A stretch of DNA of 47,469 bases, the filler included, from Cladosporium halotolerans (lineage: Eukaryota): assembly GCF_011745625.1 (NCBI RefSeq). It is 2 parts of 2 records of this genome, joined end to end, with 100 filler letters (N's around TTAATTAATTAA, not from the genome) between each part and the next. Parts side by side here need not be neighbours in the genome. Positions count along the whole stretch, not along the records: positions 1 to 23,985 come from NW_027191543.1; 1 more part is not named here. One strand, given 5' to 3'. The notes beneath the pieces were generated by a model that saw only the letters and a list, made by a program, of their open reading frames with translations, was not told the origin of the DNA and ran no database searches. Positions within the stretch are counted from its first letter, which is position 1. Every line of letters starts with the position of its first letter. Of the stretch, positions 15,346-17,574 are shown in pieces. The translations under genes and the position numbers were made by a program.

Positions 15346-17574
15346 TCAGACGCCCAAACGCGGTCGTCTGACATGGGCGCTGCTAACCGTGCTGCCCTTT
15401 CGTTTGAGCATTGTGGTCTGCTTGTTGATCAACTCGGATTTGTGAAAGTCAATGATAAGGACGCGCTTCAACTCCGTATTCCACAAAATGTTCTCGCGCC
15501 TCAAATCACCATGACGGACCCCCAGCCGGTATATTTTGTGAGCTGACTTCATGGCGGCTTTCCTGGTACTAGATCCCTCTTGCCACTGTGACTGTGTGAG
15601 GGGCTCTCCGCCCCAGCCCATCAAAAGCATATGTCGAATGTCGCCGGCCCCATGGAGATGATATGTCTGTGCCATGTCAATGGATCCAAGGAAAACAGGG
15701 ACAGCAGAGCCTTGCACGACGCGGAGGATCTGGTAGAAACCCGCTTCGCGAGAAACCCTACTCCATAGCTCTGCGGTGGTCCCTTTCCCGACAACGGTAT
15801 ACCCGTACAAGGAACAACGAAGTTTAAAAGGGGCACCTGCCCGTCCGCACACTCCAAAAGGCTCACAGGAGTCCACGTCTACATCAAGCTGCCTCTGGAG
15901 GGCGCGAACCATTTCCGCGAGAGTTATCTCGTGCCTCCCCGTCTCTTCGCCCCTGCGGTGGTCTGAGACATTCGGACATCCGAGATCCAGTGCGCCCCCA
16001 TCTCGAAGGCCGAGCAAACATCGTTGAGTGCAGTAACTTGATGACATGCGTCGCGTATGGCCGCCTCGGCCCGGCTGTGATGTCGTAGGGCGTTGCGCTG
16101 AAGGCTGTGGAGGCGACGAAGCGACTTGGCTGTGGCTACGCTTCCGCCGATGTGCGGTGGCGTTTGAGTCTGATTCTGATGAGGTCGACGCGTCGTCTGG
16201 GGCCGTTAAATCACCCGGTGAAGGCGTACATACGGGGTGTGACCGTGTGCTGCGTCGCCGTATTCCTTCATCAGGTGATTCAATGGGTGATGAAGGAACG
16301 TACTCCGAGCCTGGGGGAGTCTGATTTAGCTGCTCTTCCGGAATTTGCGATCGTGCATGCTCAAAGTCTGTCGCCCAGACGCGTATTATCTTCTTTGCCT
16401 CGTTCCTCCACGCGTTGCTTCGAAGTGATGTCGCGCAGCACATAAGAGTGAAGCACAACAGCCGAGCAACAGCGGTGAGAGGGTACTGATGGCTTTCATC
16501 GCCTGCAGACGGCACGTCTTTGTTCGGCACGCAAAGATGGTAGTAGAGCCTACTTGGCTCATCCTCCGGCACGTAAAGGAACACCAGCGCTATTCCTGTG
16601 GATATGTAGGAATACGCTAGGCCTTCTTGTATCATGACATGGTATTCTTGGACCAGTGCCGCGCCAGTCAGCCGCATTGCGTTGTACGTCAGCTTTTCTG
16701 CTGTTTCTGTGGGAACAGTCTCTGAATTGACGACTTCATCCCAGAAATCCATCGGTCGCAGGCCCGCGCAGAGATTTTCTACAGATAATTTGTGTGGCGG
16801 CTTGTACTCGACTGTCATCAAGAGGGTGCTCGTGGAATCGTCCAAGCGATTGACGCAAAATTGGTCGGGTTGCATCCTGCCTGACTTTACGTCGGTCTCG
16901 CGAGCTTCGGCCGCCTCATCATCAAGCGCGTTCGCATGGTTGTCGAAACGCAGGCCATGGCCAAGTCGAAGCTCTTTGCATGCTGCCGGGATCGAGCAAA
17001 GGGCAGACACAACATCCTGGACATGGCGATCCTTACCAGATTGTTCGATGAATTCGAGATCTTTTTCGCTACTGATGGGATTCCTGCGAAGCGACTGTCC
17101 GAGATCGTCCAACGCAATGACAGGCGAGAACAACCGTGGCGCGTCCGCTCCAGCCGGTTGCAAGTAGCGAAGGACGACCTCGTACATTTCGGCTTGCTGC
17201 ACGGCGAAGTCGCCCCAATGCTCGAGTCTGCTTGGGCAGTATTTTCCATGAGGAGTTGGAATACTGCCTTTCGTTGAACGAGACGCGTTCGCAACTGTCA
17301 AAGGCATTGACAAGTGCGTATGGCAAGCATCGAGATACTCAGCAAGCGTCGTGTTCCGTATGCGCTGTTCTGATTGTCGCTGTTGCTCTTCTGCCTGCCG
17401 CTGCTGCTCTTCGGCTCTTCCACGCAAAGCTTTTTCGTTCAGCCGTTCTGCTTCTGCCTGACGCTGTTGCTCTTCTGCCTGGCGCTGTTGCTCTTCTGCA
17501 CGTCTTTGCCCTTCCAGAGCCCTTGCAAGTTGAACGCGCAAGTCGCCGTAGTCCGATGCATTGTTGTTGGCCAT
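15346..17574 (-). CDS. spok: Spok-family (spore-killer-like) protein: coiled-coil repeats + PD-(D/E)xK nuclease + Cys cluster + kinase, 742 aa
   Basis: Intronless intact ORF. N-terminal AEEQQRQ repeats; QPDQFC (D237) and VEYKPPHKL (E256,K258); C515-x3-C519-x13-C533-x5-H539; kinase GxxG loop, VGKG (K597), HGDLRRENIL (D690,N695), IIDF (D709). Same domain order as Podospora Spok proteins. Confidence 0.88.
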   Translation of the reverse strand: MANNNASDYGDLRVQLARALEGQRRAEEQQRQAEEQQRQAEAERLNEKALRGRAEEQQRQAEEQQRQSEQRIRNTTLAEYLDACHTHLSMPLTVANASRSTKGSIPTPHGKYCPSRLEHWGDFAVQQAEMYEVVLRYLQPAGADAPRLFSPVIALDDLGQSLRRNPISSEKDLEFIEQSGKDRHVQDVVSALCSIPAACKELRLGHGLRFDNHANALDDEAAEARETDVKSGRMQPDQFCVNRLDDSTSTLLMTVEYKPPHKLSVENLCAGLRPMDFWDEVVNSETVPTETAEKLTYNAMRLTGAALVQEYHVMIQEGLAYSYISTGIALVFLYVPEDEPSRLYYHLCVPNKDVPSAGDESHQYPLTAVARLLCFTLMCCATSLRSNAWRNEAKKIIRVWATDFEHARSQIPEEQLNQTPPGSEYVPSSPIESPDEGIRRRSTRSHPVCTPSPGDLTAPDDASTSSESDSNATAHRRKRSHSQVASSPPQPSAQRPTTSQPGRGGHTRRMSSSYCTQRCLLGLRDGGALDLGCPNVSDHRRGEETGRHEITLAEMVRALQRQLDVDVDSCEPFGVCGRAGAPFKLRCSLYGYTVVGKGTTAELWSRVSREAGFYQILRVVQGSAVPVFLGSIDMAQTYHLHGAGDIRHMLLMGWGGEPLTQSQWQEGSSTRKAAMKSAHKIYRLGVRHGDLRRENILWNTELKRVLIIDFHKSELINKQTTMLKRKGSTVSSAHVRRPRLGV
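17365..17505 (-). repeat. Intragenic 21-bp repeats encoding AEEQQRQ, two tandem pairs, in the Spok coiled coil
   Basis: CTG(T/C)TGCTCTTC units on the + strand at about 17380, 17401, 17464 and 17485. Confidence 0.9.

Follow-up and report, generated by a model that had tools for sequence, protein, structure and literature searches.

A full-length and probably expressed homologue of the wide Spok family in Cladosporium halotolerans

Among fungal meiotic drivers that consist of a single gene, Spok genes are the best understood. Here we describe the analysis of a stretch of 47,469 nucleotides of DNA from Cladosporium halotolerans (NCBI RefSeq assembly GCF_011745625.1; hereafter the window), which carries on its minus strand an open reading frame (ORF) that a previous, sequence-only reading had presented as an intact Spok-family toxin/antidote gene in a decaying accessory block. 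Our data make it fairly probable that this ORF is a genuine, full-length and transcribed homologue within the wide Spok family, with putative nuclease and kinase activities and a putative toxin/antidote behaviour. There is nothing in the data that speaks for current meiotic drive. The coordinates of the gene, its parts and the neighbouring features are collected in Table 1.

The family assignment is carried by the relatives of the encoded protein. Of 8000 candidates that were scored in the homologue search, 462 matched the 742-amino-acid protein with E-values of at most 0.001. All 120 homologues listed were full-length, similar in size and annotated with the precomputed domain PF27653, which is labelled SPOK2_N in the protein atlas. 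The best match among those listed is an unnamed Logan protein with 92% identity over 100% of the length (hereafter the 92% relative). It is followed by unnamed proteins with 60–66% identity, proteins of Hortaea werneckii with 54–61%, and proteins of Aspergillus, Penicillium and Onygenales with about 50% identity over the full length. The nearest atlas clusters scored 0.99, 0.98 and 0.97, and PF27653 is present in 98%, 95% and 99% of their respective members. An exhaustive search of cluster representatives returned 2520 clusters with E ≤ 0.001, of which 720 remain when the threshold is set to E ≤ 1e-30; the family of Spok homologues is very large. When the protein itself was scanned with a Pfam set that does not contain PF27653, only the kinase loop was matched (Kdo, 5.2e-5; Pkinase, 0.0016), and it is via the PF27653 domain of its listed homologues that the ORF qualifies, by sequence comparison, as a member of the wide family. 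The listed homologues bear names such as ‘Metalloprotease m41 ftsh’, ‘Lipopolysaccharide kinase’, ‘BUD32’, ‘cyclin CCN1’ and ‘CheA’, which is in agreement with the earlier remark that members of the family are often mis-annotated.

Translation of the minus strand yielded the uninterrupted 742-codon ORF that had been claimed. Read from stop to stop this frame comprises 745 codons, the runner-up open frame in the window having 343, and both termini of the protein are in register with those of its homologues in an alignment of 35 sequences. Near the N-terminus, the 21-nucleotide unit of a tandem repeat encodes heptads of the AEEQQRQ type, which would form a coiled coil. The length of this heptad repeat differs between homologues, and the 92% relative lacks one heptad. 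The motifs listed in the sequence-only reading were all located, namely the PD...ExK motif at residues 236–258, the exact C-x3-C-x13-C-x5-H cluster at C515, C519, C533 and H539, and the HGD, N and DF motifs of the kinase at residues 688–690, 695 and 709–710; the numbers previously assigned to K258 and D690 were both right. In addition, a regular expression on the translation found G596-K597-G598, of which K597 is the putative ATP-binding lysine of the kinase. In the 35-sequence alignment K258, C240, C515, C519, C533, H539, H548 and the GKGTT stretch at 596–600 are invariant, and D237, E256, H688, D690, N695, D709 and F710 are conserved in at least 90% of the sequences. Among 327 family proteins of 600–1000 amino acids, the Cys-cluster pattern is present in 317 and all three patterns tried are present in 262. 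Because the motifs are conserved both across the alignment and across these 327 proteins, they are not chance matches. Identity to the 92% relative varied considerably between domains, with 189 of 190 residues identical in the nuclease domain, 204 of 210 in the Cys cluster and kinase, 130 of 138 in domain 1, 102 of 110 in the linker and 40 of 65 in the coil. The nuclease domain is the best-conserved part in comparisons with the 60–66% relatives too. As judged from these alignments, the putative catalytic residues of the ORF are under constraint.

Residues 720–742 show a bipartite basic pattern, in which KR is followed after about 10 residues by KRxR, and this pattern is kept family-wide in the 35-sequence alignment. 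The basic C-terminal tail looks like a putative nuclear localisation signal, a feature that would be in keeping with a toxin that targets DNA. At the other end of the gene, a 240-codon open frame (17587–18306, minus strand) lies upstream and in frame, and it was considered as a possible part of the gene. It was rejected on the grounds that one stop codon intervenes (17584–17586), that the frame has no Pfam match, that the homologues begin at M1 and that the RNA-library contigs stop short of it. This open frame is probably due to chance in GC-rich DNA.

Structure prediction had been proposed together with the sequence-only reading as a check on it, and it returned a nuclease-type fold in the N-terminal part and a kinase fold in the C-terminal part. 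The AlphaFold model of residues 75–420, built from a 42-row alignment, has a pLDDT of 84.7 and a pTM of 0.85. In VIA-align the best match to this model is BpuSI (Z 9.2, 150 residues aligned, rmsd 3.8), followed by DrdV (Z 7.1), HsdR of Vibrio vulnificus (3h1t; Z 6.4) and HsdR of EcoR124I (2w00; Z 6.3), while SgrAI, BsaWI, NucC, NgoMIV and EcoRI appear in lower rows. Judged by their entry titles, 13 of the 15 top rows are restriction-endonuclease-like nucleases, the remaining two being mitoribosomal proteins. Since Z-values of 7–8 are common background in this comparison, the weight of the assignment rests on the uniform type of the matches and on the D...ExK motif. On the strength of the model, residues 75–420 are predicted to adopt a restriction-endonuclease fold of the PD-(D/E)XK type, with D237, E256 and K258 as candidate catalytic residues. 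The model of residues 500–742 has a pLDDT of 71.8 and gave at least 500 kinase matches in the Protein Data Bank (PDB) at E ≤ 0.001 with Foldseek, the best being Rio2 (1zar, 1.4e-6) and the top kinases including Rio2, CK2 and RNase L. The family profile matched the Cdc7 kinase in the PDB at 7e-5, and sequence and profile searches of the PDB with the protein or its family found kinases only and no nuclease. The C-terminal part is accordingly modelled as a kinase fold, in which the aspartate of HGD would be catalytic. Taken together, the PF27653 homologues, the alignment, the fold searches and the BLASTP comparisons described below bear out the Spok architecture and the family assignment.

Evidence for transcription was obtained from public sequencing runs. 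Twenty runs from 12 studies (DNA and RNA) carry the 3-kb stretch that surrounds the gene. In 14 of these, labelled as dust, air, aerosol, urban, indoor, soil or otherwise, 0.52–0.58 of the sampled words were found, and six RNA runs contained 0.24–0.34 of them. The contigs of four runs, two of DNA (X1 and X12) and two of RNA (X15 and X16), were placed on positions 12001–20000, which were divided into 30 bins. Both DNA metagenomes cover 30 of the 30 bins. The two RNA libraries, which come from separate studies, cover only 14137–17607 (13 bins), and the RNA depth is zero on 12001–14136 and 17608–20000, where the DNA runs do show depth. One contig of X16, 3241 nucleotides long, is colinear with the window and has no joint, and X15 covers 14770–17343 in pieces; RNA cover of the 5' end of the gene is lost within the repeat. 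This cover fits intron-less transcription of the Spok-family gene, which is probably expressed. Among the pieces listed for X1 and X12, the DNA contigs that lie in or mostly in the ORF have substitutions and 0 gaps, and the pieces of the upstream flank have 12–21 gaps (224 further pieces exist beyond those listed).

The position of the protein within the family was examined with two trees, one computed with FastTree on 123 rows and one computed in a quick IQ-TREE run on 42 hand-picked named rows with a midpoint root, and the two agree. The ORF protein groups with the 92% relative, Hortaea and two unnamed metagenome proteins in a 5-row subclade (SH-aLRT 100), which is nested in a larger clade of 19 rows (SH-aLRT 100) that contains Eurotiomycete and Dothideomycete proteins as well as some from Hypocreales. 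A 14-row Sordariomycete clade (SH-aLRT 100) contains the FOXG, F. poae and Polytolypa proteins, and we take it to be the equivalent of Vogan's clades I and II. To our knowledge, every Spok gene that has been tested falls in the Sordariomycete clade. Since the tree places the ORF outside that clade, it belongs to the wide family and not to the narrow, tested clade. The clade of the ORF protein mixes Eurotiomycetes, Dothideomycetes and Hypocreales (Fusarium, Metarhizium, Epichloe, Stachybotrys), and its branching order, which is unlike the species tree, points to old paralogy or to transfer between classes. Judging from the taxa named in the accessible text of PMC6660238, which describes the Polytolypa hystricis homologue as close to the Podospora Spok genes, we infer that the Podospora genes lie within the 14-row clade.

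The members of that clade were reached through a search seeded with a Colletotrichum protein. This search returned a Sordariomycete set that includes Colletotrichum, Beauveria, Xylariales and Pyricularia, together with FOXG_17087, FOXG_12586, FOXG_12536 and FOXG_16420 of Fusarium oxysporum 4287, FPOA_13328 of F. poae and one protein of the eurotiomycete Polytolypa hystricis. In BLASTP the ORF protein is 31% identical to the Polytolypa protein (704 columns, E 1e-92) and 33% identical to FPOA_13328 (E 3e-104). The stretches PDQxC, EYKPPHKL, YCTQ(R/K)CLLG...CPNV..H, GKGT, HxD....N and IDF are in register in both alignments. No Podospora protein was present among the matches listed for the ORF, Metarhizium and Colletotrichum queries or among 30 named cluster representatives. 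Likewise, the tested loci FOXG_14281, FOXG_14774, FOXG_07107, NECHADRAFT_82228, FPOAC1_003985 and FPOAC1_012971 were not among the matches listed.

On this basis we propose that the protein would consist, from the N-terminus onwards, of a coiled coil, domain 1, whose role is unknown, a PD-(D/E)XK nuclease, a linker that is disordered, a Cys3His2 cluster, a kinase domain of an atypical (ELK/RIO-like) kind and a basic tail. By analogy with SPOK3 and with SPOK1, which kills by targeting DNA according to the accessible text of PMC9972908, the nuclease part would most likely damage DNA, and the kinase part of the same protein would probably keep the nuclease harmless in cells that make enough of it. 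One gene would thereby serve as both poison and antidote, and the most likely biochemistry in our analysis is that of a nuclease which would damage DNA and be restrained by the kinase of the same protein.

Several observations weigh against the interpretation of the ORF as a transcribed and functional Spok homologue. The contigs of the RNA libraries are strandless, and the long X16 contig also overlaps the 3' end of a convergent gene for a TATA-binding protein (TBP). Foldseek found no match to the model of residues 75–420 in the PDB at E ≤ 0.001, and the best Z of VIA-align is only slightly higher than the background stated for the tool. The comparison with the Podospora SPOK proteins was indirect, being made through the published description of SPOK3 and through the Polytolypa and F. 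poae proteins as stand-ins. At the position of the QxxxY motif, which was mapped via the Polytolypa protein and not via SPOK3, the ORF has Q309-E-Y-H-V313 where the aligned Polytolypa protein has QTYHY, the glutamine being invariant in the 35-sequence alignment. The placement of the ORF outside the clade of the FOXG, F. poae and Polytolypa proteins has to be counted here as well. Finally, conserved catalytic residues do not guarantee activity, because of six Fusarium homologues assayed in yeast two were toxic and four were without effect, according to the accessible part of PMC12693581.

The surroundings of the gene bear on the question whether it could be selfish. As the window consists of two assembly pieces joined by a spacer, the true context of the gene is limited to positions 1–23985, and features to the right of 24085 are not its neighbours. 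A direct repeat of 190 nucleotides that is 98% identical between its copies at 1–190 and 24139–24328 ends in a (CAT)n run. Both pieces start with this sequence, probably a dispersed repeat that interrupted the assembly. The GC content of the Spok-family gene is like that of its surroundings and even across the region. An ORF-wise Pfam scan of positions 1–23985 also detected a Zn2Cys6 fragment and a Fringe-like frame that is cut by the end of the piece. The claim that genes nearby are broken stood for two of them. In the tyrosinase gene an in-frame TAA (21360–21362) interrupts the conserved copper-site stretch WHRAYMAL*EQAL, as would be expected from a recent pseudogene or a sequencing error. 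The profile pieces of the gene with a DUF7923 and a tandem-CCCH zinc finger lie in three frames only 14–29 nucleotides apart, which leaves no room for introns and indicates frameshifts. These frameshifts could be artefacts if the assembly was made from error-prone long reads, a pitfall reported for Spok genes in the available text of PMC12693581. For the two other genes named as broken the claim was not confirmed. HlyIII/PAQR is represented by only two sub-threshold pieces (E 7e-4 and 7.6e-3) and is unproven, and no Ulp1 gene (Peptidase_C48) was found in ORFs of at least 90 amino acids in the window, in those of 50–89 amino acids at 1–23985 outside the Spok ORF or in those of 58–89 amino acids in the second piece, a scan that could miss a more degraded remnant.

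The idea of a lone intact gene amid decay is contradicted by the TBP gene at a distance of 0.8 kb, which reads through with ordinary GT..AG introns and is apparently intact. The core of this TBP is unusually diverged, as 117 of 136 residues match the TBP of Chaetomium thermophilum, compared to 124 of 136 for yeast versus Chaetomium. Its sequence suggests that it may be a second, fast-evolving copy, which, if so, would hint at an accessory region. No Starship captain recombinase (DUF3435) was detected in the ORFs scanned, on an assembly piece of only 23,985 bases; Starships are far larger than that. The repeat search found no flanking repeats that bracket the Spok gene. On the second assembly piece, a DNA transposon of the Tc5/pogo type lies at 45068–47219, with terminal inverted repeats of 47 nucleotides that are 96% complementary. 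Its DDE_1/HTH_Tnp_Tc5 transposase frame contains an in-frame stop at 46365–46367.

Table 1. Positions of the Spok-family ORF, its parts and neighbouring features in the window.
Feature	Position	Strand	Basis
Spok-family coding sequence, intron-less, 742 amino acids, stop codon included	15346..17574	-	ATG-to-stop translation
21-nucleotide tandem repeat, 6.5 copies, giving N-terminal heptads at about residues 26-70	17364..17499	-	Tandem Repeats Finder
Domain 1 and predicted PD-(D/E)XK-type nuclease domain, residues 75-420	16315..17352	-	AlphaFold model and structure search
Putative nuclease catalytic motif P236-D237 ... E256-Y-K258	16801..16869	-	Regular expression on translation
Cys/His cluster C515-x3-C519-x13-C533-x5-H539-x8-H548	15931..16032	-	Regular expression on translation
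Cys cluster, predicted kinase domain and basic C-terminal tail, residues 500-742	15349..16077	-	AlphaFold model, Foldseek, Pfam
Putative kinase catalytic loop H688-G-D690 ... N695 and D709-F710	15445..15513	-	Regular expression; N695 read off translation
Contig of RNA library X16, 3241 nucleotides, colinear, no joint	14269..17491	n/a	Contig placement
Gene with DUF7923 and tandem-CCCH zinc finger, profile pieces in three frames	10516..11793	-	Pfam, frames from coordinates
TATA-binding-protein gene, last two exons, convergent with the Spok gene	13940..14513	+	Pfam TBP 3.8e-52
Tyrosinase gene with in-frame TAA at 21360-21362	20730..22391	+	Pfam, sequence reading
Spacer (44 N, TTAATTAATTAA, 44 N) at the junction of the two assembly pieces	23986..24085		

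It is possible, though we consider it somewhat unlikely, that the ORF is an intact but non-selfish member of the family, which would be either an inactive relic kept by chance or a host gene with an ordinary nuclease/kinase role. The latter would be comparable to the ‘clade I’ homologues present in single copy, which Vogan et al. judge to be unlikely drivers in the accessible text of PMC6660238. The lack of toxicity of four of the six tested Fusarium homologues (PMC12693581, available part) is consistent with this, as is the statement in PMC6660238 that single-copy, orthologue-like homologues are probably non-driving. The family is also huge and mostly intact, with all three motif patterns kept in 262 of 327 proteins, none of the DNA samples examined lacks the region, and the QxxxY motif is altered. 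However, conservation is strong and uneven (identity to the 92% relative is 99% in the nuclease versus 62% in the coil) and the listed DNA contigs of the ORF are free of indels, which speaks against a relic. Moreover, the mixing of fungal classes in the phylogeny is similar to the incongruence that the accessible text of PMC6660238 describes for selfish Spok genes. A vegetative addiction module, in which the toxin/antidote protein punishes loss of the carrier region, chromosome or Starship during mitotic growth and hyphal fusion, appears quite unlikely. Such a model has been set out for Fusarium (PMC12693581) and has experimental support in F. oxysporum (2026 preprint 10.64898/2026.10.04.756499), as far as the accessible text of these sources goes. 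The region around the present gene is poor in recognisable genes, contains pseudogenes and lies on a short contig, and the gene is apparently expressed in environmental RNA libraries, for which a vegetative source is most likely. Nonetheless, the accessory status of the region is only putative, no Starship hallmark is present within 24 kb, and the toxin activity is putative as well.

The sequence-only reading had gone further and suggested a meiotic driver that arrived recently or is selfishly kept in a decaying accessory block. We regard an active spore killer that is segregating at present as quite unlikely as well. It is true that the ORF is intact with all its catalytic motifs, that two of its neighbours, the tyrosinase and CCCH genes, are broken, and that it lies on a small piece of 23,985 bases starting in a repeat, a setting that is called typical of Spok genes in the accessible text of PMC12693581. 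An absence allele was not encountered: neither of the two DNA metagenomes has a contig joint across the gene that would represent a deletion allele. The whole 8 kb is present in both (30 of 30 bins), and at least half of the sampled words occur in 14 runs. No contig skips the gene in these two metagenomes, which thus give no hint of a presence/absence polymorphism or of a recent arrival, and this part of the earlier interpretation was not upheld. The analysis brought up no indication of additional copies of the gene either. The intact TBP gene next to it, the lack of a captain recombinase in the ORFs scanned and of bracketing repeats, the GC content that matches the surroundings and the placement outside the clade of the Fusarium and Polytolypa homologues all argue in the same direction. 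Among these readings, that of a full-length, transcribed homologue of the wide Spok family is the one we retain as fairly probable.

As a sequence alone the ORF is ordinary, given the 720 clusters at E ≤ 1e-30 and the fact that most full-length members keep the catalytic motifs; it adds to a known and very large family and is no surprise. More would be at stake if it were a functional single-gene toxin/antidote of the Spok type, the first one outside the Sordariomycetes, be it a spore killer or a vegetative addiction module, which we hold to be unlikely. In that case the hundreds of clusters in the huge Dothideomycete/Eurotiomycete branch would represent a pool of selfish killers rather than ordinary kinases. 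DNA of this fungus occurs in samples from air, dust and indoor or urban settings across many studies. As an intact and apparently expressed copy from the larger branch, the gene is a sensible choice for testing toxicity in yeast, and toxicity would widen the known reach of selfish genes of this type. The accessible text of PMC12693581 and 10.64898/2026.10.04.756499 links Fusarium Spok genes to the upkeep of accessory chromosomes. Functional tests are described there and in related accessible texts for Podospora Spok1-4, Nectria/F. vanettenii 82228, six FuSpoks and one F. oxysporum spok gene, and no functional tests outside the Sordariomycetes were found in the literature on Spok genes.

Among known systems, the closest named relatives are the uncharacterised PF27653 proteins of, among others, Hortaea werneckii, Aspergillus, Penicillium and Onygenales, which keep every motif and for which no functional tests were found in the literature on Spok homologues. 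The type I HsdR enzymes and the type IIG enzymes BpuSI and DrdV are like residues 75–420 in their fold (Z 9.2–6.3 over 131–150 residues) and in the D...ExK motif. They differ in that identity is only 8–14%, in that the ORF lacks their helicase and methylase modules, and in that the ORF comes from a eukaryote and its predicted nuclease part is joined to a kinase; the likeness, as modelled, is one of fold and not of family membership. HsdR of Vibrio vulnificus (3h1t) is also the best HHpred match of SPOK3 according to the accessible text of PMC6660238, from which the following description of SPOK3 is taken. Its coiled coil, which is encoded by a variable nucleotide repeat, is followed by a domain 1 of unknown function. 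Its PD-(D/E)XK motif spans residues 219–240, and K240A abolishes killing. A QxxxY nucleic-acid-binding motif is located at 294–298, the cluster reads C-x3-C-x13-C-x5-H-x7-H, and D667 of the kinase is required for resistance. The ORF shares with SPOK3 the order of coiled coil, domain 1, PD-(D/E)XK nuclease, disordered linker, Cys cluster and kinase. It also shares the span of 21 residues between the catalytic D and K (237–258 in the ORF), the C-x3-C-x13-C-x5-H spacing, a catalytic aspartate in an HxD loop and an intron-free coding region. The last histidine of the cluster (H548) follows after x8 instead of x7, and nothing like the Enterprise/Starship setting of some Podospora Spok genes was seen around the ORF. 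The Fusarium FuSpoks (FuSpok1/2 of F. poae and the F. oxysporum spok on a Starship) resemble the ORF in their family, in their catalytic residues and in their location on short, repeat-bounded or accessory-like pieces. The FOXG_ and FPOA_ proteins differ from it by their place in the Sordariomycete clade, and some FuSpoks are toxic in yeast or stabilise a dispensable chromosome.

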